Below are positions 46,358 to 62,985 of a DNA stretch of 64,000 nucleotides, in pieces. The notes beneath the pieces were generated by a model that had not been told where the DNA came from, did no database searches, and saw only the letters and a program-made list of their open reading frames with translations. The translations under genes were made by a program, and so were the position numbers. Numbering within the stretch: the first letter of the stretch is position 1; every line of letters starts with the position of its first letter. Source of the stretch: Turneriella sp. (lineage in GTDB: Bacteria; Spirochaetota; Leptospiria; Turneriellales; Turneriellaceae); the NCBI GenBank assembly GCA_965279515.1, contig CBDIID010000003.1, forward strand, positions 2,304,001 to 2,368,000, written 5' to 3'.

Positions 46358-46441
46358 TACCCGTGGCCGGAGTTGAACCGGCACGGCATTGCTGCCCCAG
46401 GATTTTAAGTCCTGTATGTCTACCAATTCCATCACACGGGC
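46358..46441 (-). tRNA. tRNA-Leu (anticodon TAA), no encoded CCA
   Basis: GCCCGTGTGATGGAATTGGTAGACATACAGGACTTAAAATCCTG..long variable arm..GGTTCAACTCCGGCCACGGGTA. Confidence 0.95.
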
Positions 46442-46453
46442 TCTTTTTAAAAA

Positions 46454-46497
46454 GGCAAAAACAACACACCCCCGTGAGGGGGTGTGTTGTTTTTGCC
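46454..46497. repeat. Perfect 20-bp hairpin in tRNA spacer
   Basis: GGCAAAAACAACACACCCCC-GTGA-GGGGGTGTGTTGTTTTTGCC. Confidence 0.85.
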
Positions 46498-46503
46498 AGA
46501 TTG

Positions 46504-46574
46504 AGGTGTCGCCCGGATTTGAACCGGGGGTGGAGCTTTTGCAGAGCTCTGCCTTACCACTTGGCTACGACACC
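46504..46574 (-). tRNA. tRNA-Cys (anticodon GCA), no encoded CCA
   Basis: GGTGTCGTAGCCAAGTGGTAAGGCAGAGCTCTGCAAAAGCTC..GGTTCAAATCCGGGCGACACCT. Confidence 0.95.
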
Positions 46575-46579
46575 GATTT

Positions 46580-46689
46580 GGTTGGCGTGAAAACCGAGAT
46601 CGCCGAAGCGACAGCAGCGAAGCGCTTTAGCAGCAACTTCGCCCCGCGAATTTGCGAGGCTGGAGCTTCGGCTCGGTTTTCCGCCAACC
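46580..46689. repeat. Family A palindromic element, second copy
   Basis: Terminal IR GGTTGGCG-TGAAAACCGAG / CTCGGTTTTC-CGCCAACC; AGCGCTTTAGCAGC is the reverse complement of 5701-5714. Confidence 0.7.
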
Positions 46690-46790
46690 GATATTGTGCG
46701 GAAAATACTACGAAAAACACAGGTCGTCAAGGATTAAGGGGGTTGCAAAGCCGTAAACACCTCGCAATACGGCCGTGGCCGGCACTTCGA

Positions 46791-48290
46791 ATGAACTGGT
46801 TCATGAATCGATCACTTTCGCCACCGTTAATCCAGGTCTTGTTATTATCATGTCTGGGCATAGCCTTTCTTTCTGCCTGGCCCCAATTTAACGCCCTAAG
46901 CGCCATCGCACCGCCAGGCCATCCGGTGAGTGCCGCCTTCCGGCTTGTCTCGCAGCTACTGCTGTTTGCCCCGGTGGCGCTGTTGCAACTCATTCCCGAA
47001 CGCCGGAGTATTCAGAGCCCTCGGTGGACATCGTGGATTAACGCGTTGCTGCTTTCCGGAATCATGCTCTATGCATATCTGCCGGCGCCCTTCTTCGATT
47101 ATGTGTGGGATGTTTTTCTCATCGAGAGTATTTTTGTTTTCCTGATTTCACGCATCTGCCTGGTAATTGAAGGCCGCGAAGATTTATTTCCCTGGCCAAT
47201 GCGGGTGTTGCTTTTTAAACTCATGCTGTGTATGGGGATAGTTAAATTTCTGCACGGCATGCCCGAATGGCGCTCCGGTCTGGCGTTAAAGTATTTCTGG
47301 CAAAACCAGCCAATGCCCGGGCACATGGCGTGGTGTCTGGCGCAGTTACCTGATTTCATGCAGCAAATTATGGCGGCGTTTGTTTTTCTGGTCGAGGTAC
47401 CGGGGCCATTTCTGATCTTCGGGGGCGGCAAATCCAGACGGCTGTTTTTTTTCCTGAACCTGATGCTCCAGTTTGGTATCTTCATTTCGGGTAACTATGG
47501 ATTTTTTAATATCCTTACCGTGGTGCTCAGTATTTCTCTATGGGATATGCCAAAGCTAGATGCATTGCAGCATGGTCGTTCTTCCTTACCACCTTTGCAT
47601 CCGTTGTTGAGGAAAATAGTTTTATGCGCCTGCAGCGTTATCCTCGCCGGCTGGTGTTTCACATCACTATGGTATCTGTACCGGTGCGTCTTTCCGGGAC
47701 CAAAATATTTGCACGAGACAAGTTGGATTTTTCTGGGCAATGAAGAGCAGCGCGCCGTACCGGCTCCGATTCGAACCGCACTTAAAGTCTATGCCGCCGC
47801 GAAGATCAGCAATCCCTATGCCCTGTTTGGCATGATACCCAAGTACCGGCTGGAAATCGGCCTGGAAGGCAGCGCGGACGGAGTCGAATGGAAAAAATAC
47901 CAGTTTAAAATCAAACCCGACAAGGCGCAGACCGCACCAATTTGGTACGCTCCGCACCACTGGCGGCTCGATCACCAGATGTATTATGAATCCTTCCGTA
48001 TCCGCGACCCCGCCCTGCATGAAAAATATAGCTACTTTCTGGGCGTGCGGTGGATGCCCCACTTTCTTCATGGGCTGCTCACCCAAAAGCCCGGTATCTC
48101 CCGATTGTTGGAAAACAATCCCTTTCCGGAGCACCCCCCGCTGCGCTTGCGTTTTACCTATACGTTTTACGAGTTTAATAACCGGGACGAATTTCTCGCG
48201 ACACAAAAATACTGGAAAACGACTCCCGCGCGCAGCGGCAAATTTTTTGAAGGCATTCTCGACCTGGGGAATATCCACCAATTACCGTGA
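46791..48290 (+). CDS. Lipase maturation factor (LMF1) family membrane protein
   Basis: LLFKLMLCMGIVK, QNQPMP, ISGNYGFFNILT, SNPYALFG, EGSADG..WK.Y.FK.KP, APHHWRLDHQM. Confidence 0.88.
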   Translation: MNWFMNRSLSPPLIQVLLLSCLGIAFLSAWPQFNALSAIAPPGHPVSAAFRLVSQLLLFAPVALLQLIPERRSIQSPRWTSWINALLLSGIMLYAYLPAPFFDYVWDVFLIESIFVFLISRICLVIEGREDLFPWPMRVLLFKLMLCMGIVKFLHGMPEWRSGLALKYFWQNQPMPGHMAWCLAQLPDFMQQIMAAFVFLVEVPGPFLIFGGGKSRRLFFFLNLMLQFGIFISGNYGFFNILTVVLSISLWDMPKLDALQHGRSSLPPLHPLLRKIVLCACSVILAGWCFTSLWYLYRCVFPGPKYLHETSWIFLGNEEQRAVPAPIRTALKVYAAAKISNPYALFGMIPKYRLEIGLEGSADGVEWKKYQFKIKPDKAQTAPIWYAPHHWRLDHQMYYESFRIRDPALHEKYSYFLGVRWMPHFLHGLLTQKPGISRLLENNPFPEHPPLRLRFTYTFYEFNNRDEFLATQKYWKTTPARSGKFFEGILDLGNIHQLP

Positions 48291-48318
48291 GTTTCAAACC
48301 GGCAGACGGCAAAATTCT

Positions 48319-50868
48319 TCATTTTTCGAGCCTGTTCAGATTCGCCAGAATCAGCAGCAAACGCTTATCTTTTTCAATTTCCAGGGGAAACTTTCTCAAG
48401 TGGCTTATTGCAGCCGCTGGTTTTCTCTCCTGTAAATGGCGCACAACCTGCCGCACAATCATCAAATAATGGTTTTCCGGCAGAGAAGATGTCGCCACGG
48501 CCCGTTCCGTATTCTCATCGAGACCGAACAACCAGGCAATCGTTAACGGAGACGCATTCGCCTTATAAGCTTTTACCAGCGCGGGCAATGCCGTTTTCAT
48601 ATCGGATGCGGTTTCGACCGTGAATATATTCTGAAACTCAATTTTGCCCAGATCCGGCCCCGGAGGGCCAAAACGGGCCGAAACGGCATTCGTCACAGAA
48701 GCCTTTTGGGTTGCGGCGAACCGCTGTAAGAACGGAGCATAGTGTGCAAGTGGTCGGGTATAGTCCTCCTCGATGTAGGCGTGGTTATCGGTCAGCAGCC
48801 GATGCGGAAAATATTCTGTTGCTAAATCAGCCTTCGTGGACACTAGGAGTGAAAATAGCTGTTCCGGCGATGACAGCGCCGTGTCGCGGTAAAACCGCGT
48901 CGTTGCCAGGATCTTGAATTTCTCCTGAAGATTTTGTTTTTGCCCGCCCTGCGCCGCGTAGCCAACCAGAATCAGGTTTGTTTCGGTGCCTGCATAGAGA
49001 TCGCATTCCTGAAAAACAGCACAAAATGTTTTTAGAATCTGCATCGCCGCCGGGCGTGAAATGGAATGGATCGGCACCCAATAGGTAAATGCGCCACCGG
49101 GTCTCAGACGTGATTTAACCAGCTCATAATAATCTGTGGTATACAGATATGAGACGTTGGAATTTGCGGGTGGAGGAGGCTCTCCGGTGATCAAATCATA
49201 ATTTTCGGTCGTTTTGTGCAGAAAATCCCTGGCGCCACCCAGGCTGAAATGAAGCCGGTTATCCCGAAGTGGATCGATACTATTCTCGCGATGGTGAATA
49301 ATCTCCGTAAGCGGTAAAATGTCGCGCGTAACGTCGATGACATCCAACCGCTTGAGTTCTTTGAATTCCAGAAGGGCCTGCGCCGTTAATCCCGTGCCGT
49401 AACCTATATTCAATGCGCGCTCTCCGTTCTCGGCGTATAGCCAGGCGAGATACGACATTAACTTCATGTAGCGCCGGCTCGAAGGCATCGTGCCGGACAT
49501 TGAGTGTGCGTTACTGATCAGACGATGGTAAAGCGGGGTTGCGCCCAGCAGCTTGTCTGTCAACACCCAGAGATCGCGGTTCGTCTCCGAAATGCGCCGT
49601 ATTTTTTCGTGAGGAACCAACTTCGATATATTGCGTGTGATCTGATCATAATACCATTGCGAATCACGCGCCCGGATAAATAAAACTAACATTACAACTA
49701 TGAAAACTAAAATGAAAATGGATTTCAGCGTCCTTTTCCCGATTCTAACCGCTGAGCGCCAAACGCAAAACGCAAGAACCCCGACATAACAGCCGATGAA
49801 AATCTGAAAGGAGATCGTGGTTTTTAGCCATGGCAGCAATAACAGGCCAAATAGAGCGGCCCCGATACAGGCCCCCCAGGAATTTTCAATCAGAACGCGC
49901 CGCGTCGTTGAAAAAGTGTCTGGTCCCGTTAAGAACGCAAAATTGTAGAGGCATGAACCTACTCCGGAAATCCCCAAAAGCAAGAGTACGATAAAGATTT
50001 CGCGCGGCAAAAAAGCCACAGCGGATAGCTTTTGCGCCGTAATGCAAAACACGAGAGCGCCAGCCGCAACGCCAGACGTTACCAGATGATATTTTCCCGC
50101 TAAAAGAGCGGATTTTAGTTTTGAAATACCATAACTGACCGCCGCACCCACGATCATGCTCAGCGCGGTAATTTCAGCACTGATATCCGCCGTATCACGC
50201 AGGTAGATCTGCAAAAGCCGGTAGACGATAGAAATACCACCAAAGAGCAGGAACCCGCCGGCAAAGGCATAACCCCAGGAAAAATTCCGTTCCCCGCCAG
50301 GGGAAGAAATATCTTCGGCACGACTATTTTCGCCCGCCGGCTGGCTCTTGAAGAGCAGTAAAGCTGCGATCATAAATCCGATCGCCGAGAGGGCCACCGT
50401 CAATACGCTCAATGACCAGGCTTTGAAAAAAACTCTTTCGCCTAGAAGCAAGCCCATGGCAGAGCCGCAATAGATCAAGGCATTCAGTCTGGGCGCTGTG
50501 AGGCGTTGGGTAACCGGTAATCTCAGCGACGTCTCAAACAGCAGGGAATATTCCATGCCTGATAAAAAAAAGAAAAGGACAGCCAGCGGAAGAATCCCGT
50601 GATTTGCGAATACTAGAATTATGCAGATGCAAAATTTCAGAACCAATACTAAACCAAACGCACGGCTGGTCCGCATTTGTTCAGGCAAAAAAGGTGTCAA
50701 TGTCATCGCGATCGCAAAAGAAAAAAACTGAGCAACGAGCGTGACCGCAAAGCTCGTAAAATCTATGGGAAATACCAGCCCCAGTTTTCGCAAAATCACC
50801 TGGACATGAACCAAATGAATGAATTGCAGTAAAAAGCTGATAATCCCTATTTGAAATCGACTTTGCAT
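48319..50868 (-). CDS. Polytopic membrane protein fused to spermidine-synthase-like SAM-binding domain
   Basis: Many TM helices, then LNIGYGTGLT, GARDFL, YDLITGEPPPP, LYTTDYY..LRPGG. Confidence 0.82.
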   Translation of the reverse strand: MQSRFQIGIISFLLQFIHLVHVQVILRKLGLVFPIDFTSFAVTLVAQFFSFAIAMTLTPFLPEQMRTSRAFGLVLVLKFCICIILVFANHGILPLAVLFFFLSGMEYSLLFETSLRLPVTQRLTAPRLNALIYCGSAMGLLLGERVFFKAWSLSVLTVALSAIGFMIAALLLFKSQPAGENSRAEDISSPGGERNFSWGYAFAGGFLLFGGISIVYRLLQIYLRDTADISAEITALSMIVGAAVSYGISKLKSALLAGKYHLVTSGVAAGALVFCITAQKLSAVAFLPREIFIVLLLLGISGVGSCLYNFAFLTGPDTFSTTRRVLIENSWGACIGAALFGLLLLPWLKTTISFQIFIGCYVGVLAFCVWRSAVRIGKRTLKSIFILVFIVVMLVLFIRARDSQWYYDQITRNISKLVPHEKIRRISETNRDLWVLTDKLLGATPLYHRLISNAHSMSGTMPSSRRYMKLMSYLAWLYAENGERALNIGYGTGLTAQALLEFKELKRLDVIDVTRDILPLTEIIHHRENSIDPLRDNRLHFSLGGARDFLHKTTENYDLITGEPPPPANSNVSYLYTTDYYELVKSRLRPGGAFTYWVPIHSISRPAAMQILKTFCAVFQECDLYAGTETNLILVGYAAQGGQKQNLQEKFKILATTRFYRDTALSSPEQLFSLLVSTKADLATEYFPHRLLTDNHAYIEEDYTRPLAHYAPFLQRFAATQKASVTNAVSARFGPPGPDLGKIEFQNIFTVETASDMKTALPALVKAYKANASPLTIAWLFGLDENTERAVATSSLPENHYLMIVRQVVRHLQERKPAAAISHLRKFPLEIEKDKRLLLILANLNRLEK

Positions 50869-51001
50869 TCGGTATGCACCGCGATACCGGTATTGCGGAA
50901 CGAGCTTTCAGGTAAATCTTTTTGATCGTGGATTTACCGGTTTTTCGGCATATATATTGAAACTTTCCTTGTCTTTGTGAACTGCAGATATTTCGGGGTC
51001 A

Positions 51002-51586
51002 ATGCGGTATGCTTTCCTTTTGCTTCTGGTGGCTTTTGGGTTCTGCAAAAAGCCGGCAACAGACAAGAACAACAAGCAAGAGCTTCTGAAGACCGAGCTC
51101 CGCAAATTTTTTAGCGTCCCTGTAGACGCGAAATCACCATTAAATGGCATTTTTCGTGTCGATAAAGACAGCCTCATTACCACGACCGAGCAAAAGTACC
51201 TGAACAACTACAAAGCACAACCGGACGAATCATCACTGGAAGTCGTTCGGGGCCGGATGAAGAACACAACGATTTTTTACCGCATCTCTGCGGGAGGTGC
51301 GATCGCCATGGCAACAATTGCTCCCGGAAGCATCGGCGTCAGCGAAGGGTTTATAACAAAACAACCAAAGAAAAATCAGCAAATTACCTGGCTGGGCAAA
51401 CTCAAGAACCGCAAAGGGGAAATTCAGATACGCATTATTCACCCGACGCTGACGCCTATCAATAATTTTGAATACATCGAAGGCGACGTGACGCTCAAAG
51501 CGTCGCGCGAGCGGCGATCCCCCGACGAATTAACCTCGGCCTGTATGGAGACAATTCTGCAAAATACAGGGTTGGCGGAATATTGA
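51002..51586 (+). CDS. Hypothetical lipoprotein
   Basis: MRYAFLLLLVAFGFC signal. Confidence 0.7.
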   Translation: MRYAFLLLLVAFGFCKKPATDKNNKQELLKTELRKFFSVPVDAKSPLNGIFRVDKDSLITTTEQKYLNNYKAQPDESSLEVVRGRMKNTTIFYRISAGGAIAMATIAPGSIGVSEGFITKQPKKNQQITWLGKLKNRKGEIQIRIIHPTLTPINNFEYIEGDVTLKASRERRSPDELTSACMETILQNTGLAEY

Positions 51587-51615
51587 AAGAATCTGAAATC
51601 TTCCGGATGTTTTAG

Positions 51616-53115
51616 ATGCGCCCACTTCTTTCGCTAATTCAGGCGCAGGAACGTCGTAATTATAATCCGTACACGTTCTTTCTGTTCTGTATCTTCACGG
51701 GTTTAATGCGGGGTATACTGGAGATTTTCCTGCATAACATCCAGATTCGAAATACCGAAGTCGTCGGCTTTATTCCGTTCTATATCTCCCTCGGCTTACT
51801 GCTGCGCGAAATACTGGCACTCCTGGGAGGGATCAGTAGGGAAAAAGTTGAAAAATCCCTGATCATGGGAATTTTCCTGGGGTTATTCCCGCCGATATTC
51901 GATCTTTTTCTGCCAGCCCCGGCGCCGGTATTCTACGGCTACTATTTTCTCTGGGATTTCCGGAATATCCCGTGGCTCGGTTATAATCCTTACTTCAATT
52001 TTCCGGCCGGGGAATGCGTCACGATCTGGCTGAGCATCTTATTCTGCGCCCTCTACGTCCATGCCCAAACAGGAAAGATTTTCCGGGCCCTGATGGCTTT
52101 GGCTGCTGCATATCTCATTTTTATTTTTTGCGGCAGCTTGTTTCCTATGCTACTCTTCAGAGTTTCGCAAGGCCTTGCCGCGACAGTCGAAGCTGTGCGT
52201 GCGATAGACTTTGTCAGGCTACAGATGTTCTTACTCCGCCTGTCATTCTGGCAAGCGATACTCGCTCTCGCATTACTCCTGGTTTCGCGGAAAACGCTGC
52301 TCGTGCATACGCTACGCCGCTTGCCGCATGGCCTGCCGTTTATTTGCCTCGCTATTCTTGGCGGAACTTTGGTGAAGGCCTCTACGGAATTTCTAATCAG
52401 CGCAACCTCTGCATTGCTCGCGGTGATTATTCTCGCGATCTGGCAAAACGATCATTTTGATTTCCGCGATGACGGCAACACAGAGCCGCCGGTTGCAAAG
52501 CATGAGTTGCAATCCTGGACGATTGTCACCCTGATCACGCTGCTGTTTCTGTTTTTTCAAAATCAACGCAGCAGCATCTTGCTTTTTGTCGCGCTGGTTG
52601 CATCGACGCTCTACAACTACCCCTTCTACCGGGGCCGAAATCATTTTCCCGCCAATCTGAAAATCGAGGGCATTTGGGGTGTATCGGCATTTCTCGCAGG
52701 TGCCTTGCTCGATCCGGTTGCGGCCCAGGACTTCAGGGTGAAAATAACGGCGCTGCTGATCTTCGGCGGTTGGTCAAGTGTCAGCGTCTGGAAAGACCTT
52801 AAAGACATAGAGAGCGATAAACGCGCGGGGGTCGCAACGGTGTTCACATTGCTGGAAAAACGTGGGTTCCCGCGCACCAAAATCGTCATAGGCGTGAGGT
52901 CGGTGGTAACATTTTTTTTCCTACTGCTTCCGCTGATTGCGTTCGTGACTATCAATGCAACGGCCGGGGCGATTCTCATGGCGACCGCATGCTTACCCGT
53001 CGCGTGCTTATGGCTCGGCGAGGGGAAAAAAGCTTTTCAATGGGGTCTCGTAGCCGTCGCGTTGAATATTCTCGCCGCTGTCGCGCTCGTGCATTTAGGA
53101 ATCTGGAGGGCCTGA
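51616..53115 (+). CDS. UbiA-family prenyltransferase with extra N-terminal membrane domain (paralog A)
   Basis: NDHFDFRDD, YNYPFYRGR, KDLKDIESDKRAGVATV. Confidence 0.78.
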   Translation: MRPLLSLIQAQERRNYNPYTFFLFCIFTGLMRGILEIFLHNIQIRNTEVVGFIPFYISLGLLLREILALLGGISREKVEKSLIMGIFLGLFPPIFDLFLPAPAPVFYGYYFLWDFRNIPWLGYNPYFNFPAGECVTIWLSILFCALYVHAQTGKIFRALMALAAAYLIFIFCGSLFPMLLFRVSQGLAATVEAVRAIDFVRLQMFLLRLSFWQAILALALLLVSRKTLLVHTLRRLPHGLPFICLAILGGTLVKASTEFLISATSALLAVIILAIWQNDHFDFRDDGNTEPPVAKHELQSWTIVTLITLLFLFFQNQRSSILLFVALVASTLYNYPFYRGRNHFPANLKIEGIWGVSAFLAGALLDPVAAQDFRVKITALLIFGGWSSVSVWKDLKDIESDKRAGVATVFTLLEKRGFPRTKIVIGVRSVVTFFFLLLPLIAFVTINATAGAILMATACLPVACLWLGEGKKAFQWGLVAVALNILAAVALVHLGIWRA

Positions 53116-54635
53116 TGATCCGCCCGACAAAAATTCTCTTCGCTTTTTCCTTCATATACCTCATTTCATGCAAAAAGCCCGACACGCAGGATACGTTTGC
53201 CGGACAGGCCTTGGATACCAGCGACAAAGCGTTGGCAGAAGGCCGGGCTCTATCTCAAAAATATTGCACGCAATGCCATATTTTACCCGAGCCTAACCTA
53301 CTCAATCAGGAATCCAACAACTACACCCTGAGCTATATGGGGTTGCTGATGGGATTCGATTCATCGGCAAATTTAATCGAGCCGCTCGAGAAGGCACATT
53401 TTCAGAACCGGTTTCGTCTGCTCAAGGCAACACAAAGAATTCCACAAAAACCAGCCGTTTCCCGGGAAGAATTCCATGCGCTGAGAAATTTTTTCTTAGC
53501 GAAATCACTCATTGATCCATCACCACCCGTTTCCGTCAGCAAAATTTCCGGCACTGTGCCAAACCTGAAGTTTGACGATAAAGTTGTAACGCTGCTCAAG
53601 CGCATCCCCGGTACCGAAAGGATGGCTATCGGTGGTGGAATGACGAACAGCCTTCAGATTTTCGATTCCACTTGGAATATTTTATTGGAAACGTCATTCA
53701 CCAGCCCGCCAGTCGACGTCGTTTATGAGGACAAAACGTATTATGTCGTGACCCTGGGCGACCTGCTGGGCGGCTTAAATAGCCTGAAGAAGGCTGAGCT
53801 CTGGGCTGTCTCCAGTGCTTCGAAGAAGAAATTGCTGAGCGGATTGACGCGCTCCACGCAGGTGTTGCTCCATGACATGAACGGAGATGGGCGCAAGGAT
53901 TTCCTGATCTCTTCTTTCGGCAACCAAGAGGACGGGGAATTAGCGTGGTATGATTTTGAAACCGGAAAGCAAAGAAAACACACGATTACTGAAAATGCAT
54001 CGGTTGTGCGTACTGCTATCCTCTCGAAGCCAGGAAAACATCCGGTGCAGATTGCGGTTTTGAAGGCCGGCGCCCGCGAGCAGTTGATGCTCTACACCAT
54101 AGACCGCCAGAAAACAGAATCAAGGATTCTGGATCAATACCCCCCAAGTTACGGTTCTGTCTGGCTTGAGGCCGCAGACTTGGACGCAGATGGCAACGAC
54201 GAATTACTTGTGCTTAGCGGCGATAATGCAGATTGCGGTCCGCACAATGCCATAAAACCCTACCAGGGTCTGCGCGTTTACAGCATGACCGCGGATGCAG
54301 CCACGCTCAGAGATTTTTATCCCATTCAAGGCGCACTGAGCATGAGCATCAGGCCCCCTTCTTCTGGCCAACCTGTTCAAATTCTGGTATTAGCGTACTA
54401 CGCTGATCTGCGGGCACCTCGTGATGTGGTCATCTTGACCGCCGATGCTACCGGAAAATTCCACGAAAAATCGTATTTTATGAATTCAAGACCGACCGTG
54501 GGTCTATGGCTGAATGCTGCGAATTCGCTTCTCATCGGCAGCGGCAATATTCCGCTGCGTCAGCGCGTGCAGGGATCAACCCAGTTCAGGCAATTCAACG
54601 GACCAGCGCTACAGGAATTCACTATACGCGACTAA
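53115..54635 (+). CDS. Lipoprotein with heme c motif and FG-GAP/VCBS repeats
   Basis: YLISC lipobox; CTQCH; DMNGDGRKD, DLDADGNDE; start reset to ATG 53115. Confidence 0.8.
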   Translation: MIRPTKILFAFSFIYLISCKKPDTQDTFAGQALDTSDKALAEGRALSQKYCTQCHILPEPNLLNQESNNYTLSYMGLLMGFDSSANLIEPLEKAHFQNRFRLLKATQRIPQKPAVSREEFHALRNFFLAKSLIDPSPPVSVSKISGTVPNLKFDDKVVTLLKRIPGTERMAIGGGMTNSLQIFDSTWNILLETSFTSPPVDVVYEDKTYYVVTLGDLLGGLNSLKKAELWAVSSASKKKLLSGLTRSTQVLLHDMNGDGRKDFLISSFGNQEDGELAWYDFETGKQRKHTITENASVVRTAILSKPGKHPVQIAVLKAGAREQLMLYTIDRQKTESRILDQYPPSYGSVWLEAADLDADGNDELLVLSGDNADCGPHNAIKPYQGLRVYSMTADAATLRDFYPIQGALSMSIRPPSSGQPVQILVLAYYADLRAPRDVVILTADATGKFHEKSYFMNSRPTVGLWLNAANSLLIGSGNIPLRQRVQGSTQFRQFNGPALQEFTIRD

Positions 54636-54656
54636 CCTGCGTCGAAAATACGGAGC

Positions 54657-55499
54657 GTGCTCAGCCCCGTTCTGAAGAACATCGCGATCCTGATCACCTA
54701 CGCATGGTTATCTTTATCCTGCAAGGAAGAGAAAATAAATGTCGATCAGAAGCTCGCCGCGACGCGGGAGTATTATGATTCCCCTGGCGTCATCGGCGCT
54801 TTCATGGATCCGGCGGCCTTCGGTCAATACCGGTGGCATGCGACATTTAAGATAAAGACTTTAGAAGGTCAGATACTGGATGAAACTGAATATCTGACCC
54901 GCAATGCGAAATTATCCACAGAGACGCGCATTCTGGATTGGGGCTGCGGAATGGGCTGGTTAGCCGTGCGCCTGGCACAGCAATGCCGGTGCCGGGTGAC
55001 CGGGCTCAACATTTCTGCCGTTCAACTGGAACAGGCAAGAAAATGGGCGCAACAGAATCACGTCGCGCAGTGGGTGAAATTCGACCTGTACGACGGCAAA
55101 AAGCTGCCTTACGAAGACTCGGCTTTTGACGTGATTTTCTCGCAAGAAGCCCTCGTAAACGCTCCCGATAAAGATCTTACCTACCGCGAAATTTTTCGGG
55201 TGTTAAAACCCGGCGGAGAATTTTCTGTTCAGGATTGGTACGCAGACGCAGCAAATAAGCATTGGGCAGATCTCGTTAAACCTATCGACGAAGAGCATAA
55301 ATCTTCACTGGCGACGATGCAAGATACCGCACAAACGCTGAAGCGAATCGGTTTTGAGAGCGTTCAAAATGAGGATATCCGCGAGCTCGCCCCCGGTTCA
55401 CTAGCGCGGGCTTTTCCCAACCAGGTATTCGCGGCTGCTCTGAAAAGCGGGGCTTTTACCGTCGCCTTTACATCCGCAAGAAAACCGCGGCTGCCTTAA
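54657..55499 (+). CDS. Class I SAM methyltransferase with lipoprotein-like signal
   Basis: LSLSC; ILDWGCGMG, VTGLNIS..Q, LPYEDSAFDVIFSQE, RVLKPGG. Confidence 0.85.
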   Translation: MLSPVLKNIAILITYAWLSLSCKEEKINVDQKLAATREYYDSPGVIGAFMDPAAFGQYRWHATFKIKTLEGQILDETEYLTRNAKLSTETRILDWGCGMGWLAVRLAQQCRCRVTGLNISAVQLEQARKWAQQNHVAQWVKFDLYDGKKLPYEDSAFDVIFSQEALVNAPDKDLTYREIFRVLKPGGEFSVQDWYADAANKHWADLVKPIDEEHKSSLATMQDTAQTLKRIGFESVQNEDIRELAPGSLARAFPNQVFAAALKSGAFTVAFTSARKPRLP

Positions 55500-55500
55500 A

Positions 55501-57000
55501 TCAATAACCCGCCGCATAGGCGAACGCAATGAAGTAGCTGGAAATCGCTATCGAAAAATAACGGAAAATCCGCAGACGGGGTGCCCAGTACAATACTGCC
55601 CAAAGCGGCAGAACAGAAAAACCCGCAAAGAGCAGGCCATGTAGAATCGTCTTTCTCGCCAGTAAGAAAAAAACGGGCAAAACGACAATAATCGCAATTT
55701 GAAGTTTGTAAAATCGAACGGCAGTCGAGAGACTTTTAGTTTTCTTCTGCAAAAATGAAATCAGCGTTTTTCGCCCGTCCCGGCGGTCGTTGAGAATATC
55801 TTTTAGATCTTTGAGCGACGATAAATACGCCCAACCAAAAAAAATGAGCACCGTCAGCACTAATGTCGATACCTGAAAGGGATTTATCTTCAAACAAACC
55901 AATGCGCTCCACAGAGCACAGACACCCCAACCGCCTTCGATTTTCTGGCCGCCGAGCGTATAATAACGCATCCGGGTTTCGGGCAGGTTGTAAAGCAGCG
56001 TCAAGACCAGAAAAATCAACTGCGGAAAAAACAGCAAACTGCCTATCCCGTAAAGATAACCGACAAGGATAAACATCAGGACCATAAAAAACCGCACGCT
56101 GTCGGCATACTGCATCCCCATAGTTGAGACGGTGACTAAAGCAGATTTAGCAACCGTTTTCGTATCGTAGAGATCGTTTTGCATGCAGGCAAACAGGAAA
56201 TTAAGCATTACCAGCCCGGGAATGCAAAGCGTCAGTACGCCGTAATTACCCGTAAAGATGAAGGGCGCCGTTGCGATAGCACCGAACGGCATGTAGTGTA
56301 GCACCCTTCTCTGGAGCGCCCTGCGGAAATTTGAATCCGTGATGAGCCATAGCAGAATAATGACAGCAAAATGGGCAAATACATGGTAGCGCGTAGAGGC
56401 GTTGCGCGCGTTGAGCCGCAGCGCGGCATCCAGATTCAGGCCTGCATCGGCTTGGGTGAAAAAATCCGTTAAGCTTTTGGGCAACACAACCAAAAAGAAC
56501 AAGAAGACTCCGTATGCCGCAACACCCGCGGCCAAAATTCTGAGCGGGTTCCGCGTTTCACGGAGGGTGAATACCAGCGTGAGCATGATAATCAACCAGA
56601 CCGCGACCGCTTCGCCGAGCGGAAATCCGCGCATCGGCGCATAGAAAAATGGTGAGAAATAGCTGAAATCCTCATATAAATAATAAGAGTAAGGCAGTAA
56701 CGGCGTGGCCTGAATCCAGAAATTTACCAGATCCACTACGGGCGGCAATAGCCCAACCAACAACCCTAGCCGGGCAAAATTCAAACTTGATCTGCGGGAA
56801 ATTCCCGAAAGCCTGTACAATATCAGATGAAAGCTCAAACCGACGGCCACGTAGTAAAGTGAGTACGCAAAGGGGAGCACACCGTTTAACTTGGCCACTC
56901 CTAAACTGGCCTCCAGAAACCAACGGCCGAAGCCGACAACAACAGCAATGAGAATCAGGGCCGAATAACTGGATTTGCGATGCTGCTGTCGAGTGATCAT
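55501..57000 (-). CDS. UbiA-family prenyltransferase with extra N-terminal membrane domain (paralog B)
   Basis: NDLYD, YNLPETRMR, KIEGGWG, KDLKDILNDRRDGRKTL; same 499-aa length and GL.PP..D / FP.GE motifs as paralog A. Confidence 0.75.
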   Translation of the reverse strand: MITRQQHRKSSYSALILIAVVVGFGRWFLEASLGVAKLNGVLPFAYSLYYVAVGLSFHLILYRLSGISRRSSLNFARLGLLVGLLPPVVDLVNFWIQATPLLPYSYYLYEDFSYFSPFFYAPMRGFPLGEAVAVWLIIMLTLVFTLRETRNPLRILAAGVAAYGVFLFFLVVLPKSLTDFFTQADAGLNLDAALRLNARNASTRYHVFAHFAVIILLWLITDSNFRRALQRRVLHYMPFGAIATAPFIFTGNYGVLTLCIPGLVMLNFLFACMQNDLYDTKTVAKSALVTVSTMGMQYADSVRFFMVLMFILVGYLYGIGSLLFFPQLIFLVLTLLYNLPETRMRYYTLGGQKIEGGWGVCALWSALVCLKINPFQVSTLVLTVLIFFGWAYLSSLKDLKDILNDRRDGRKTLISFLQKKTKSLSTAVRFYKLQIAIIVVLPVFFLLARKTILHGLLFAGFSVLPLWAVLYWAPRLRIFRYFSIAISSYFIAFAYAAGY

Positions 57001-57017
57001 GTTTTCCGCGATCTGTT

Positions 57018-57497
57018 CTATTTCAGTTCGGTGCCGAAAACTGTCAGCACCTTAACCCATGCCAGCATTAATTCCTGGTACGCAGCCCTGGTTTTTTCTT
57101 TTTCCGGATAGGTCTTCATCGCCGTGCGGATATTCGCGGCCAGCTTGTTAACGATCTGAAAAAGCGGCTGGAGATCAGCTCCCAATTGCCTGCCCAAAAG
57201 ATTGGGATTTTCCGCATATTTTTTACTGACCGCCGGATATTTTTTTGCCATCGCCTTGATACCCGTATACAGATCGAGCGTGATATTCGTATTTTCCTGG
57301 ATCAGCTTCAGTAAATCATAATCTTTTTTACTCTGGGTATACTGCGCCAGTTCATCCTTACTTGCCGCGTATTTTGCGTAGGTGCTTTGAATTAATTTGC
57401 GACCTTCTGCAACGACCAGATCTTCTTCGCGCCGGCCATCGGCACATTCAGAAGCAAAAAACGTAATTGCGGCAAACAGGAAAAAGCGAGAACGCAT
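57018..57497 (-). CDS. Hypothetical helical lipoprotein
   Basis: MRSRFFLFAAITFFASEC; downstream of the giant gene. Confidence 0.65.
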   Translation of the reverse strand: MRSRFFLFAAITFFASECADGRREEDLVVAEGRKLIQSTYAKYAASKDELAQYTQSKKDYDLLKLIQENTNITLDLYTGIKAMAKKYPAVSKKYAENPNLLGRQLGADLQPLFQIVNKLAANIRTAMKTYPEKEKTRAAYQELMLAWVKVLTVFGTELK

Positions 57498-57543
57498 ACA
57501 ACGACTGACTTTTCAGACAAAATCAGTCGTCATGCGCTTTTTG

Positions 57544-60500
57544 TTACGGATAGTTCGCTTCGGAGTACCCGCCTGGGAAAAGTAAACTGCCGGTACCTTT
57601 GCGGCCGGATCCTGTACTGGAATTACAGCTCGAGGTAGTCCCGCCGCCGCCTGCACCTGGTGCCACGTCAGGGGTGATATTGCAGTTATAACGCACCGGT
57701 GGCGCATTGAGCGGAACTTTGCAATAATCGTAATTCTTGTTATTGCGCCATTTTGTTCCCACTGCGTCAGAGCACGCTTCGTCGGTTTTTGTCGAAAGAT
57801 CGGAACAATATGTGCCCCACTGCTCGACAGAACCGGCAGGTTTCAGGCATGAATTTTCGTTATTATCCGTGCTGTTTCCGGATGGGTGTGCACAGGTGCC
57901 CTGCGTACCCGGCCCGCCAATAGCAGGGCTCTGCGTCGCGACACCGTACTGGTTCGTGGCAATGTTCGGCGGAAAACCAAACTCACCCGTACCTAAACCC
58001 AACATCCACGAGAGAATGCCCGTCGCAGTACCGTTTATGATATCCCAAACACCTTGAATTCCCGGGCTCGCGGTATTGCCTAAGACGCTCAGGCCATTCC
58101 AGACGATACCGTCTGTGTCATGGTATTCGACAACCGGCCATACTTCCGCACCTGTTTCTTCCGCCAAATAAGCCAAACACGCCTCGGTGCTCCGGGCTGA
58201 GGCAGTACCCCACCAAGGTGCCTGGTAACGGTGCCGGTACGTGCCGGCCCCAAACTGGGTATCTGTCAGATCGACCCAATCGGTTTTGCTGAAATTATGC
58301 ATTGTTCCATCCGAGCTGGGTTGTGGCGCGGTGTCGTAGTCTTCGGGTAATTGTTGCGGGTTCGTCAAGGAACCAACACTATTGCTCGGCACGCCGAAAC
58401 CGCAAACCATCGCCGCAATGGCCGTGCGCCAGCCAAACTTCACAATCAAACCCTCGAGCGCCTTGCCTGTGCCTGTGTTCAGCAACTCACCCAATCGGTT
58501 AGGTCCGATCCCGGTGAAATAGTGACAAGTGCCGGTGCGCTGGTATTTGCTGCGTACCGTGCCCTGGCTAAATGCCGTGCCCGCATCAGGTATGCCCGTA
58601 CCTTTATGGATAAGGCCCACAAACGCTTCTACGGCGAGATCCTCATCGGGTTCAAGGTTATTCACAAGATATGTGAGCGAGCGGTACACCGCATTGATAT
58701 GCGTTGTATTTACGAGTGCCTTTGTGACATCACCCGGTTGGTTATTCACGATGCCGATCACCGAGTTAATCCGCCGTGTGGCGTTGACCATGCGGATGGT
58801 CTTCTGCGGATTTGTAACTCCACCAACGATGATGGCCAGAGGCGAAGCGTCGTTGATTCCCAACATCAGATTCGATAAACGGTGCCTGCGATCGTAGTTA
58901 TATGAGATGTCTGATTTATTGTAAGCAAAGCTGACGTCAGCATCACAGGTATAATACTGAGCGGCGTTATTCCACGTCGAGCCTGCAGCAACACAATCCT
59001 GTTGGTTGGTGTGTGTCGCAACAGTACAGTTCGCGCCCGAGGTGACGGTAGAATCGTAATCGGCGCGCAGACCGCAATATTGTACGTCGTTGACGACGGT
59101 CTTCATGTTCATCTGCTCTGCGATCGTACGCGGCTGGCCCAGTGTCTGGTTCCACGCTAACTGGTTGATAGTATCCCAGATAATGGAAATGTCGCCAACG
59201 TTTTTCGTACCAGTGCCCTTTTTCGTCGATGCGCCGACATTGTTCAACAGGGTAAGCATTTTACCGTAGTGAATGCCGCCCGACATATTCCCTTCGGTCC
59301 ACACAGCGCCGCCAGCCGTGCATGTCGAATAGGTTTGGTAAGTCACATTCGTACACGACCCTGCACCATTAATGACGGCGATGAGTAGGTCGATGTTGGT
59401 TACACCGTTTAGGAGATCGCTCATATAGTTGATGCGGCCGATGGCATTCACGAAACCATAGCCAGTGCCGTCGGTGCGTGTTCCATAAGAGAAAGTCGGG
59501 GTAGAGGAGGAAATAAAGTTCAGGTTCGCCACTCGATTCACGACTGCGATCACGTTCGAAATTGCGTCTGTCTGGTTGATGAGAACAATAAGGCGCCCGA
59601 GGGCATCCGTGGTATTCGTATCGCAACCTGGGTCTGTACACCCTGACCCCGAAGGTGCGGTTCCGTACAGGGCGCCAGCATATGATCCTATCGCGCCGGT
59701 GCCATACGTTAGGTTACCCTGAATATCGACGAGTGTATCAATACGCGTGATGTTGGTGTTCGGATCATTCAGCAGCAAAATCATTAAATCCACGCTCGTC
59801 ATTTCGGAGAGCAGCCGCGACAGGTACTTAATGCGGTTCACGTTTCTGAGCAGGTAGCTCACCCGGGTGATCATATAGTTCAGATTCACTTCGTTGACCA
59901 TGCGAGCGGTATTGAGGCCGGCGTTGCCACCCGTCATCGCCTTGATAAACGTCGTCAACCGACCGAAATCTTCGAGCGTGCTGTTCGAAAGTTCGTTAGT
60001 ATACGGTGATCCGCTATTCATTGTCCGCATATCATAGAGCACATCTACCATACGCTGAACACCTGTCGCTCCTGTAGGGTAAGAGCCATTCGTTCCGGGA
60101 CCGGTAGTCGGGTTCAGGTTACTGACGATTTCCGCAACGGTATTCGATCCCGCGGCAGTGGTCGCAATATCGTTCACCAGACGAACCAGGTGATTCGCTA
60201 TACAAAAATCCGTCGCGGTGCCGGTCGAGCAGGTTGCGCCATTGGCAAGCTTCACTGCGTTGACGCGGTTAAAGAATTGTGCCAACTTTGCGCCGCCGCC
60301 GGGATTTGGAGAGTTAAAGAACGTTTCATCGCCCGCCAAAGCAGTATGAGTACCCGAGTTTGCTGCGGTTGTATTCACAAGGGACGAGCAAGTCAAATCG
60401 TTGCTCAGGCGGAACGTATTGACCGTAAGCGGACAGACATAGTAGACTTGCCCTGAGTTAATGCCGCTCGGTAGCTTTATCGTAGACGTAAAGGAAATGC

Positions 60501-62985
60501 GGGCATTTTGAATTAAGCCGTGGGCCGCCCAGGTAACAACGGCCGGCGAGGCTACGGAAATTGTCACAGTTGACGACGTCGTATCATACACGTTCGCCGT
60601 TAATTTGAGTTTATTCAGAATTTCCGCGACGCGGATAGTATTAGTAACCCCGTTTAATAGCGCTGCAACATCGCCAACCGGCGCCCCGGCCGGTGAATCC
60701 GCGAGAACACGCAACATATTGCTTGTCCCGGCGGGATTCAGGGTTTTCAGGATATCAGCCGTGCGCACGCCCGCAGCCCCCGTCAAACCATTGATGAGAT
60801 CGGGTACATTAGACGGCGTCTGTACGAAATCCATCATTGCTACAAGTTGATCTGTCGATGCCTGGCTATTCATGTTATTCAGAATGTCATACATGATCTG
60901 CAGATTGGAGATCGTATTCACAGTTGTGGCGAGCCGCGGCACGGTCGCAATGCTGGCCGGGTACTCGACACGATTCACTGTGTGTATGAGTGTATCAAGG
61001 CCGTTGTCCCAGGTGGGAGTACAGGTGATCGGGGAGGCTGCCCAGCAACCGGCCGGGGTCGTAGTTGCCGTTGCATTACTCAGAATATCCGCAACGTTGG
61101 TAATGCTCGAAGCAATGTACAGATTGTTCATCATGATATAGGTTTTTTCGGCAGCGGTGCGTGCTGCTCCTTTATCTCCCGGTAATGTAACCGTATCGAG
61201 ATAGAAAACACCTGTACTATTTAATGCACGTTGTACATCCCAGCGTAACCGACGTACCCCGGTTGCCAGCGCCTGGGTGCGCAAGGTAAAAGATCCCGAG
61301 ACACCTGTAAAGGTTTGCACCTGCACATCATCAACATAGAAGCGCACCGTATCGTAAGCGCCCAAAGCTTCACGCGTATAAAATGTCATGTTGCCGGCCG
61401 TCGTGATGTTTGCTATCATTTCGGCCGATTGTGTTTGAGTAAAGACTGTCGCAGCGGTGCCGTCGTTGCGTAGGGAGCAGGCACCGCTATGCACTGTTGT
61501 ACCACCCGAGCGCCAGCTTTTGCCCCACCACGGCGTACCTGCAGTGGTTTGATTGTTTGAGAAAGCCCAATTCATACGGTTATCGAATTCACCGTTAACA
61601 CAGCCCGTGCCTATGTTGGTATCAAAAGTAGAATCATTTGTGAAAACACCGGTCGTATCCAGATTATTCACCATATAGGCGAGGCGTAACGTGCCATTTG
61701 TGCCAAAGGAATCGGCATCGGTACCTATGTAGAGCTTGTTGATGGTTGCAACCATCGAGTCGACGCCGTCAAAAACGTTACCGCCATCACCCGGATATGC
61801 CGTCGGCAAACCGAGCCCAACGGGTAAGGCCACGGTAGGCCATGGCGGTCTTTTGCCGTCGTTTGTCAGGCCGTTCACGATCGTGTACATGTTAGGCACG
61901 TTCGAAATATTATTTACAATAACTGGTATTTTGGAGGCTTTTGTTCTCCATGTTGCAGACGCAGCCAAACACGCGCTGCCATTGGTATGGGCGGGATTCG
62001 AACAAACCCGGTCGAGTTCGTTGATCATGCGTGACATATTTTCAATACCGTCGGCGGTCCAGGTTGCGCCGCCAGCCACGCAGGATGTCCGCGTTTCATA
62101 GATAGGATTCGAGCAATTTGAATTCGACCACACACCCGGGTTTAACGGGCGCAGCGATGCATCGAAAGGCGCTTCGCACGCTGCTTTAGTGAGGTGCCAA
62201 GGACGCGAGCAATAGACATTTCCGGAAAGACCTGCCATAACTGCGGTGATGTTTGAGAGACTGGTCGTACCGTTGATGATAACCGCGATATCCCGCAAAT
62301 CTTTGGAACTGTTCACAAGCCGAATCAACTTTGCGGTTCCGGCCGCAGAAAAAACTCCACTCGGAGCGGCCAGATCGTTGATGAGTGTCGGCATTACACT
62401 TAACGCTTCATTCAACAGCGAAATCAGTAACGCAAGACGCGCTACATTATTGTTATAGGTGACCCCGTTGGGATCGCTGAAAGAAGGCGAAGCTGCTGTC
62501 GTATCGGTAACACCATGGACAATGTTTTTAACCCCTTCCATGCCAGCATTTGTCACCTGGTTGATCATGTTAGTCATTTTCGCAATGGTATCTGTTCCCC
62601 ACGAACCGGGCTGCTGGCAGGCATCATCCAGCTTATTAAGAAGATCCAGCACTTCAATGGCTGTCAGCTTAACGGAGTTAGGCCCATTGGACATGAGAGC
62701 TGTTAGTTTTCCCGTACCGCTGATGCCATTAATCAGCTGCGTCATATTTGAAACGCCAATACCGTATGTGAGGAGATTCAGGTTATCTTGTCCGATTCCC
62801 GCTACCAGAGCATCGTAGCGGTCGGCACCTAAGGCAGCACGCATTTGGTCTGACGTGTAGGTCTGCCCTGATTCGGCCTCTTTATTTTTGGCAAACTGAG
62901 TCTGCGTCCGCTTTGGCGCGCAGGTTGCCGTAAAGGCAACAAGCCCGATTCCAATCAGTATTTTCCAACTTTTTGCGCTCTTCAT
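57544..62985 (-). CDS. Giant (1813 aa) surface lipoprotein with Cys-Trp repeats
   Basis: RBS GAGGG; signal ending AFTATC; Asn/Thr/Gly-rich; repeated C-x10-C-x6-W modules. Confidence 0.85.
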   Translation of the reverse strand: MKSAKSWKILIGIGLVAFTATCAPKRTQTQFAKNKEAESGQTYTSDQMRAALGADRYDALVAGIGQDNLNLLTYGIGVSNMTQLINGISGTGKLTALMSNGPNSVKLTAIEVLDLLNKLDDACQQPGSWGTDTIAKMTNMINQVTNAGMEGVKNIVHGVTDTTAASPSFSDPNGVTYNNNVARLALLISLLNEALSVMPTLINDLAAPSGVFSAAGTAKLIRLVNSSKDLRDIAVIINGTTSLSNITAVMAGLSGNVYCSRPWHLTKAACEAPFDASLRPLNPGVWSNSNCSNPIYETRTSCVAGGATWTADGIENMSRMINELDRVCSNPAHTNGSACLAASATWRTKASKIPVIVNNISNVPNMYTIVNGLTNDGKRPPWPTVALPVGLGLPTAYPGDGGNVFDGVDSMVATINKLYIGTDADSFGTNGTLRLAYMVNNLDTTGVFTNDSTFDTNIGTGCVNGEFDNRMNWAFSNNQTTAGTPWWGKSWRSGGTTVHSGACSLRNDGTAATVFTQTQSAEMIANITTAGNMTFYTREALGAYDTVRFYVDDVQVQTFTGVSGSFTLRTQALATGVRRLRWDVQRALNSTGVFYLDTVTLPGDKGAARTAAEKTYIMMNNLYIASSITNVADILSNATATTTPAGCWAASPITCTPTWDNGLDTLIHTVNRVEYPASIATVPRLATTVNTISNLQIMYDILNNMNSQASTDQLVAMMDFVQTPSNVPDLINGLTGAAGVRTADILKTLNPAGTSNMLRVLADSPAGAPVGDVAALLNGVTNTIRVAEILNKLKLTANVYDTTSSTVTISVASPAVVTWAAHGLIQNARISFTSTIKLPSGINSGQVYYVCPLTVNTFRLSNDLTCSSLVNTTAANSGTHTALAGDETFFNSPNPGGGAKLAQFFNRVNAVKLANGATCSTGTATDFCIANHLVRLVNDIATTAAGSNTVAEIVSNLNPTTGPGTNGSYPTGATGVQRMVDVLYDMRTMNSGSPYTNELSNSTLEDFGRLTTFIKAMTGGNAGLNTARMVNEVNLNYMITRVSYLLRNVNRIKYLSRLLSEMTSVDLMILLLNDPNTNITRIDTLVDIQGNLTYGTGAIGSYAGALYGTAPSGSGCTDPGCDTNTTDALGRLIVLINQTDAISNVIAVVNRVANLNFISSSTPTFSYGTRTDGTGYGFVNAIGRINYMSDLLNGVTNIDLLIAVINGAGSCTNVTYQTYSTCTAGGAVWTEGNMSGGIHYGKMLTLLNNVGASTKKGTGTKNVGDISIIWDTINQLAWNQTLGQPRTIAEQMNMKTVVNDVQYCGLRADYDSTVTSGANCTVATHTNQQDCVAAGSTWNNAAQYYTCDADVSFAYNKSDISYNYDRRHRLSNLMLGINDASPLAIIVGGVTNPQKTIRMVNATRRINSVIGIVNNQPGDVTKALVNTTHINAVYRSLTYLVNNLEPDEDLAVEAFVGLIHKGTGIPDAGTAFSQGTVRSKYQRTGTCHYFTGIGPNRLGELLNTGTGKALEGLIVKFGWRTAIAAMVCGFGVPSNSVGSLTNPQQLPEDYDTAPQPSSDGTMHNFSKTDWVDLTDTQFGAGTYRHRYQAPWWGTASARSTEACLAYLAEETGAEVWPVVEYHDTDGIVWNGLSVLGNTASPGIQGVWDIINGTATGILSWMLGLGTGEFGFPPNIATNQYGVATQSPAIGGPGTQGTCAHPSGNSTDNNENSCLKPAGSVEQWGTYCSDLSTKTDEACSDAVGTKWRNNKNYDYCKVPLNAPPVRYNCNITPDVAPGAGGGGTTSSCNSSTGSGRKGTGSLLFPGGYSEANYP

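Follow-up and report, generated by a model that had tools for sequence, protein, structure and literature searches.

In a window of 64,000 nucleotides from a Turneriella species (G000:C3:2304001-2368000; host genome of 4.9 Mb in three contigs), we have identified nine consecutive genes, named A to I here, which form a linked neighbourhood that is not due to chance. The core of this neighbourhood is made up of a giant lipoprotein (I), a small lipoprotein (C) and, probably, a second small protein (H); the D and G enzymes, which are of UbiA type at the superfamily level, are a frequent add-on, and A, B, E and F are rarer add-ons found in a smaller subset of genomes. We tentatively favour the view that, in Turneriella-like Leptospirae, the set encodes an isoprenoid-based, lipid-linked module of the envelope that works for the giant lipoprotein, a view that may prove right and of which both the chemistry and the target are inferred. 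The locus defines a sizeable uncharacterised family of two-domain UbiA-type enzymes, with an N-terminal domain whose invariant charged residues are predicted to face the periplasm, and shows it in a genetic setting where a giant surface lipoprotein is accompanied by its two small cognate lipoproteins and by a bacterial LMF1 homologue, of which the phylum has few. The role of a bacterial LMF1, the product of the enzyme family and the ligand of the barrel lipoprotein are now testable questions.

An earlier note, made from the sequence alone, had placed nine genes between tRNA-Cys and gspC, and the coordinates bear this out: the open reading frames (ORFs) are flanked by a tRNA-Cys gene (46503-46574) and by a gspC-like ORF (63212 onward) that matches the NCBIfam model GspC_delta weakly (28.9 bits, far under the cut-off of 150). 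Positions are those of the window, and domain calls were made with Pfam and NCBIfam models.

A, 46791..48290, plus strand: LMF1-like polytopic membrane protein of 499 aa (Pfam)
B, 48319..50868, minus strand: 849-aa protein with a polytopic N-terminal half, a spermidine-synthase-like domain (~465-630) and an unassigned C-terminal part
C, 51002..51586, plus strand: small lipoprotein of 194 aa, predicted eight-stranded calycin-like β-barrel
D, 51616..53115, plus strand: two-domain UbiA-superfamily enzyme, with a 6-helix N-terminal domain (~1-225) and a 9-helix UbiA domain (~226-495)
E, 53115..54635, plus strand: lipoprotein of 506 aa carrying a single haem-c motif and a β-propeller of FG-GAP type
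F, 54657..55499, plus strand: class I S-adenosylmethionine (SAM) methyltransferase of 280 aa with a lipoprotein-type signal sequence
G, 55501..57000, minus strand: second D-family enzyme, a paralogue of D, 499 aa
H, 57018..57497, minus strand: small secreted protein or lipoprotein of 159 aa, helical by eye, with a 'K/E-Y-P' motif
I, 57544..62985, minus strand: giant lipoprotein of 1813 aa

Recurrence of the gene set in relatives

Forty relatives were searched for proteins of the set. All nine genes occur together twice, in the window and on the contig L043, in differing orders, and subsets of the set recur at more than 12 loci besides L043. The gene orders are as follows.

L043, a 12-kb metagenome contig: I-H-G-F-C-B-D-E-A, all nine genes in an order unlike that of the window
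L045: I, FAD_binding_4, D', E', H-like (H'), A, C, D
L041: A-B-C-D
L044: D'-A-C-D
G008: TatD-D-C-A-D' and D''-E
G012: MauG-like, D, Uma2, H-like, B, A
G004: B-A-C-D, polyprenyl synthase, TatD
G016: A-C-D on one contig; I, MauG-like, FAD_binding_4, D, H-like on a second
G013 and G018: I-C-D-H-like
G006: I adjoining D
L033, L035 and L037: D-E-C, C-D and D-E, respectively

The genes thus form a recurrent set, as the earlier note had expected of a real system. The D family was found in 12 of the 40 relatives at E<=1e-10, and 11 of these also match I, the exception being G014, which is 54% complete; about two thirds of the I-bearing genomes carry a D/G-type enzyme, in one to three copies and often next to C or I. 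In the window, G013, G018, G016 and G006, only a few kb of one contig separate I from a D-family gene, and giant-D adjacency is seen in three genera plus L043 and L045, with differing gene orders. C directly follows I in six genomes. A is within two genes of a D-family gene at eight loci (G008, G004, G016, G012, L041, L043, L044 and L045), B adjoins A in G012, G004 and L041 and is also present on L043, and E adjoins a D-family gene in the window, G008, L033, L037, L043, L045, G006, G023 and G022. The link to the type II secretion system that had been suggested is not conserved: gspC adjacency is seen only in the window, and a tblastn search with gspC of 22 loci from relatives (L011-L032) gave no match at E<=1e-4 to 1e-5.

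The UbiA-type family, the lipoproteins and the accessory proteins

Neither Pfam nor NCBIfam gave any match for five of the nine proteins (C, D, G, H and I). The assignment of D and G as twin UbiA proteins in the earlier note stands at the superfamily level, although not through any Pfam match of the two proteins themselves; it is based on the family profile, the match to DGGGP synthase, the fold and the Asp-rich motifs. In an exhaustive search of a protein collection with the D-family profile, the representative clusters numbered 1,282 at E<=1e-3, falling to 498 at E<=1e-10 and to 182 at E<=1e-30, with members mostly of 480-520 aa matched over their full length. Of the 80 members that were aligned, 50 match PF01040 at E<=1e-3 (the best at 2e-17), and single relatives score 35.2 to 61.9 bits against a cut-off of 34.2. 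Against PDB sequences, the 80-sequence profile found DGGGP synthase (E 1.9e-11) and chlorophyll a synthase (E 3.7e-7), where an earlier profile of 16 sequences had given chance-level rows only. In its structural model, D has 15 helices, six N-terminal and nine in a predicted UbiA fold, and a fold search returned structure 8j8j, which belongs with the Rv3806c system discussed below. UbiA enzymes carry two Asp-rich motifs, NDxxDxxxD and a DxxxD inside KDxxDxxxD; those of D are NDHFDFRDD (278-286) and KDLKDIESD (393-401), and N278, D394, K396, D397 and D401 are invariant across the 80 sequences. G is 24% identical to D, scores 387 bits on the family hidden Markov model (HMM) and has an orthologue on L043 in the matching giant-H-G order.

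The nearest solved relatives of D and G are thus DGGGP synthase and chlorophyll synthase (PF01040), to which the family adds a conserved six-helix N-domain of ~225 residues that has no Pfam model; it also differs from them in sitting with lipoproteins and an LMF1-like protein. Non-UbiA matches among the 80 members amount to two isolated ones. Within the N-domain, R32, Y56 and E133 are invariant and E36, P92, P93, D96, Y107, Y109 and W138 nearly so. In the ESM Atlas the domain found only unnamed clusters (0.81 and 0.76), and it drew no assignment from fold searches with the whole model, which were dominated by the UbiA half. When the 15 helices of the model are counted from a cytoplasmic N-terminus, both Asp-rich motifs would be cytoplasmic, in agreement with known UbiA enzymes, and the conserved residues of the N-domain would lie in the outer half of the membrane.

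Variants of the family were also encountered. Among 15 long members scanned, six are natural D-like fusions (P0059, P0063, P0099, P0104, P0093 and P0153), four with FAD_binding_4 and two with a squalene-cyclase-like prenyl-binding domain, and in P0039 and a 922-aa ORF of L039 the N-domain and the UbiA domain are separated by ~390 extra residues. Outside the Leptospirae, D-like genes lie beside large exported proteins (1051-1624 aa, 11-30 Cys) in L039 and L038, both from unclassified bacterial metagenome-assembled genomes, and in L040, from a proteobacterial one. The neighbourhoods of L038-L040 also contain Lcl_C-domain proteins, a Cys-rich 398-aa lipoprotein and a cytochrome c/DUF5777 protein.

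The product of I, earlier described as a giant Cys-repeat lipoprotein, has 34 Cys, ~22 short 'ΦxxΦΦNxΦ' repeats and 5-7 CX(6-14)CX(2-9)W loops, and its lipobox Cys22 is invariant in six of six sequences. I is present in 17 of the 40 relatives; within the genus it is in 12 of 13 genomes, and within the family in 15 of 19. The matches in G010 and G022 are weak. The protein collection holds 34 further clusters of relatives, named only 'hypothetical protein' or 'Lipoprotein', and I gave no match in Pfam, NCBIfam or PDB sequences, profile search included, and no usable match in the ESM Atlas. Elsewhere in the same genome (G000:C3:3861228-3862046; L047 6214-10717), a 626-aa ORF shares ~250 N-terminal residues with I at 29% identity, with a 923-aa ORF after it; both ORFs lack Pfam matches.

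C, whose Cys15 is invariant in 18 of 18 sequences, is predicted to be a small barrel of the ligand-binding, calycin-like kind; calycins, to which lipocalin, FABP and avidin belong, are up-and-down barrels of eight to ten strands. A complex prediction for D with C scored 0.00, which is no verdict and counts neither for nor against binding. H probably, though not firmly, belongs to a family of 146-160-aa proteins with the K/E-Y-P motif. A single-round HMM of five same-genus proteins, with H left out of the seed, matches H at E 2.9e-4 among a few hundred proteins and the counterparts in G018, G016 and G012 at E 2.5e-14 to 1.2e-4, and H has an orthologue on L043 (E 1.8e-56). An iterated version of this HMM drifted into MauG-like proteins and was discarded.

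Of the accessory proteins, A is clearly an LMF1 homologue, as had been noted, both Pfam domains being above cut-off (LMF1, 101 bits against 27; LMF1_C, 90.1 bits against 34.2). It differs from eukaryotic LMF1 (PF06762, PF25179) in being bacterial and encoded in an envelope gene cluster, and no lipase was recognised among its neighbours. Homologues of A are present in five of the 40 relatives, and a sample of 300 other genomes from across the phylum yielded no PF06762 match. A possible kinship of LMF1 to vitamin-K carboxylase/HTTM proteins drew no support: at E<=10 the A profile matched nothing in the PDB sequence set except one chance row (E 0.38), and nothing linking the two was found in the titles and abstract openings of the literature searched.

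B has full-length orthologues in three of the 40 relatives. The claim that it is a spermidine-synthase-like membrane protein holds for the fold, as judged from sequence models: the Pfam Spermine_synth domain is above cut-off (33.5 bits against 22.9), whereas membership at the equivalog level is not supported, the NCBIfam polyamine aminopropyltransferase models scoring 73.7 against 472, 49.8 against 260 and 35.1 against 249.6, and MFS_SpdSyn 21.4 against 40.

The motifs by which E had been described as a haem c/FG-GAP lipoprotein are confirmed. It matches FG-GAP_3 (32.1 bits) and carries CTQCH at residue 51, and CxxCH is kept in six of six aligned family members; as a conserved motif in an exported protein this is what is expected of a c-type cytochrome, and attachment of haem is predicted. 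The family occurs in 14 of the 40 relatives, also at sites away from D. A paralogue (38% identity) at G000:C3:4098207-4099682 (L046) lies among aminotransferase, TonB-like and ABC genes, an unrelated context, and the haem-c/β-propeller family is therefore not confined to the cluster.

F likewise agrees with its description as an exported methyltransferase. It is of class I by Pfam (Methyltransf_31, 88.6 bits, and related models), and its hydrophobic leader ending in Cys is kept in the L043 orthologue (E 3.9e-105). All its NCBIfam matches are far under the cut-offs; the weak ones include UbiE/MenG quinone methyltransferases at ~1e-14 to 1e-15.

Proposed function and competing explanations

In the isoprenoid-based module that we favour, the C-terminal UbiA domain of D and G would move an isoprenoid chain from a prenyl diphosphate to a polar acceptor, with the Asp-rich motifs in the cytoplasm. 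The resulting amphiphile would be handled at the periplasmic face by the six-helix N-domain, where the invariant or nearly invariant Arg32, Glu36, Tyr56, Asp96 and Glu133 are placed in the outer leaflet. It could then be handed to the calycin-like lipoprotein C, tailored by the haem-c protein E, the methyltransferase F and B, and serve the giant lipoprotein as ligand, anchor or covalent decoration, while the LMF1-like protein A would aid maturation of the Cys-rich protein. In the literature searched, no paper paired 'UbiA' with 'lipase maturation factor', and titles and abstract openings showed no description of this cluster, in line with the earlier note.

Several observations weigh against this module. 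The 40 relatives are related to each other and are not independent samples, so that our figures are counts and not statistics. D and G themselves have no Pfam UbiA match at E<=0.01, and the first Asp-rich motif of G (NDLYDTKTV) is without its last Asp, the second (KDLKDILND) being intact. Outside the cytoplasm, F would have no obvious supply of SAM; its neighbour B combines a polytopic domain with a fold of the type that uses SAM or its decarboxylated form. An envelope lipid is an equally open target beside the giant protein. Moreover, searches for the D family gave no match in G002, G007 and G011 (99% complete each) or in G005 (92%), in all of which I is directly followed by a C-family gene and an H-like gene, so that the giant protein does not require D. 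The earlier idea of a system dedicated to the giant protein is sustained by the recurrent linkage, but the giant can do without the enzymes and is no more than a candidate for their substrate.

In G002, G007, G011 and G005 the slot up to a TatD-like gene contains GT2, GNAT, methyltransferase and B12-radical-SAM genes and unassigned ORFs of 523-531 aa. G007 has in addition a PMT_2 (GT-C) gene, two genes for Asp/Asn β-hydroxylases and one for a plain UbiA protein of 276 aa. The 523-531-aa ORFs occur as up to three paralogues with a 'YHPNHPLGH' motif, some paired directly with GT2 (L011 in G002, L013/L014 in G007, L015/L016 in G011 and L021 in G005). Since the relatives lacking D carry other genes in the slot, the D set is one of several alternative cassettes. 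Periplasmic glycosylation cassettes of the Gtr/Arn type combine a GT2 polyprenyl-phosphate sugar synthase with a GT-C transferase. Genes of this kind fill the slot after giant-C-H in G002, G007, G011, G005 and G013, with GT2 present in five of five and PMT_2 seen in G007. By analogy, this suggests that the slot holds lipid-linked envelope-modification genes; the nine genes of the window differ in having UbiA-type enzymes and neither GT2 nor GT-C. The slot could equally serve modification of lipopolysaccharide (LPS) or lipid, which also weighs against the giant protein as the target. The exchange of the D set for glycosyltransferase cassettes is relevant to the diversity of envelopes among free-living Leptospirae.

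Clues from the partners of D are split between prenyl transfer and lipid-linked sugar chemistry. Unlikely, but deserving attention, is a route resembling that of decaprenyl-phospho-arabinose (Rv3806c/DprE1/DprE2), in which D and G would load a sugar phosphate onto polyprenyl phosphate, oxidoreductases would remodel the sugar, and the giant protein or LPS would be glycosylated in the periplasm. Rv3806c is likewise a UbiA-fold membrane enzyme, relatives of D are paired or fused with VAO-type FAD_binding_4 proteins, and envelope modification is presumed in both cases. FAD_binding_4 proteins adjoin D-family genes in four loci (G016, G008, L040 and L045), besides the four fusions among 15 long members, and their weak NCBIfam matches include sugar-lactone oxidase and DprE1; partners of this kind would point rather to lipid-linked sugar chemistry and so speak against the module that we favour. 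A short-chain dehydrogenase/reductase (SDR) near D in G018 and the GT2 genes (with PMT_2 in G007) in the slot of relatives lacking D fit the sugar route as well. However, the D profile matches DGGGP synthase and chlorophyll synthase, and the phosphoribosyltransferase (PRTase) chain was unmatched even at E<=10; the DprE1 model scores only 30-40 bits against a cut-off of 500; and none of the nine genes of the window encodes an FAD_binding_4 protein, an SDR or a glycosyltransferase. A polyprenyl-diphosphate synthase beside D in G004 and L038, and squalene-cyclase-like domains, adjacent to a D-family gene once and fused to D-like proteins in two of the 15 long members, suit prenyl transfer better. 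Prenyl transfer is ranked first because of the sequence kinship with DGGGP synthase and chlorophyll synthase.

To a reading without any single system we attach a similarly low probability. Here, the slot between TatD and the giant gene would be a variable collector, with I-C-H as one unit and D/C/E/A/B as a separate lipid pathway nearby. The content of the slot indeed varies widely among species of one genus, the region has a lowish G+C content and abuts two tRNA genes, LMF1 is patchy, and A/B/C/D clusters are present on contigs without the giant gene (G008:C5, G004:C29, G016:C109 and L041). Yet several of these contigs are short pieces of fragmented assemblies, and the C family is common to both units, being beside the giant in six genomes and beside D in many. 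The recurrence of giant-D adjacency in differing orders across three genera, L043 and L045, and the match to the giant in 11 of the 12 D-positive relatives, likewise argue against two unrelated units.

A bolder form of the isoprenoid module is improbable. The two-domain UbiA enzymes would couple cytoplasmic prenyl transfer to a periplasmic transferase that attaches an isoprenoid group covalently to the giant protein, with C as the carrier and the LMF1 homologue as the maturation factor. If true, bacterial protein lipidation would gain a new type, and LMF1 function a tractable bacterial model.

MauG/MbnH-like di-haem enzymes adjoin the giant gene or D in three relatives (L023 10983-12551 in G016, L028 649-2031 in G012 and L024 12306-13454 in G004), and a cross-linking role for them is conceivable because I has Cys...Cys...Trp loops. 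DsbB or VKOR acting with quinones offers an analogy, and a redox role has been reported for eukaryotic LMF1. A redox-cofactor system, in which D, G and F would make a prenylated, methylated quinone-like cofactor used by A and E for disulfides or cross-links in the 34-Cys giant, is nevertheless the least probable of the explanations: the occurrence of A only in D-positive genomes (five of five) and close to D at eight loci, the UbiE/MenG matches of F, the conserved CxxCH of E, the di-haem enzymes and the paired Cys followed by Trp in the giant are in its favour, but the UbiA domain is nearer to O-prenylating enzymes than to ring prenyltransferases of the MenA or UbiA type, F has an export signal whereas quinone methylation is cytoplasmic, the cluster contains no ring-precursor genes, the A profile matched no PDB chain beyond the chance row, and A is missing from most giant-bearing genomes.

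Layout and composition of the locus

Spacing suggests four transcription units, namely C-D-E-F, I-H-G, A alone and B alone. The intergenic gaps are 29, -1 and 21 bases in the first, where the stop of D is overlapped by the start of E, and 46 and 17 bases in the second. Promoter-like sites in the scan were at the level of shuffled sequence (19 against 17.3), and terminator-like sites were somewhat above it (35 against 22.5); none of the latter was used. The claim that all nine products are membrane proteins or lipoproteins comes from reading of the sequence and a crude hydropathy scan, and is least secure for H: the lipoprotein Cys of E, F and H was read by eye, and the residues preceding that of H are atypical for a lipobox. 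The same scan is too crude to tell on which side of the membrane A and B have their soluble domains.

The locus had also been described as more AT-rich than its flanks. This is real but modest: the G+C content of the region is 0.505 against a genome mean of 0.5305 (standard deviation 0.020), at the 9th percentile of 2,426 windows of equal length, and G+C at third codon positions is 0.51-0.61 in the locus genes, where the two flanking genes measured have 0.68 and 0.70, so that the bias is weak. Upstream of A, the minus strand carries tRNA-Leu(taa) and tRNA-Cys(gca) at 46358-46574 of the window, with a 20-pair terminator-like hairpin between them (46454-46497). The LMF1-like gene A most likely starts at 46791, because the longer ORF (46389-48290) crosses both tRNA genes.

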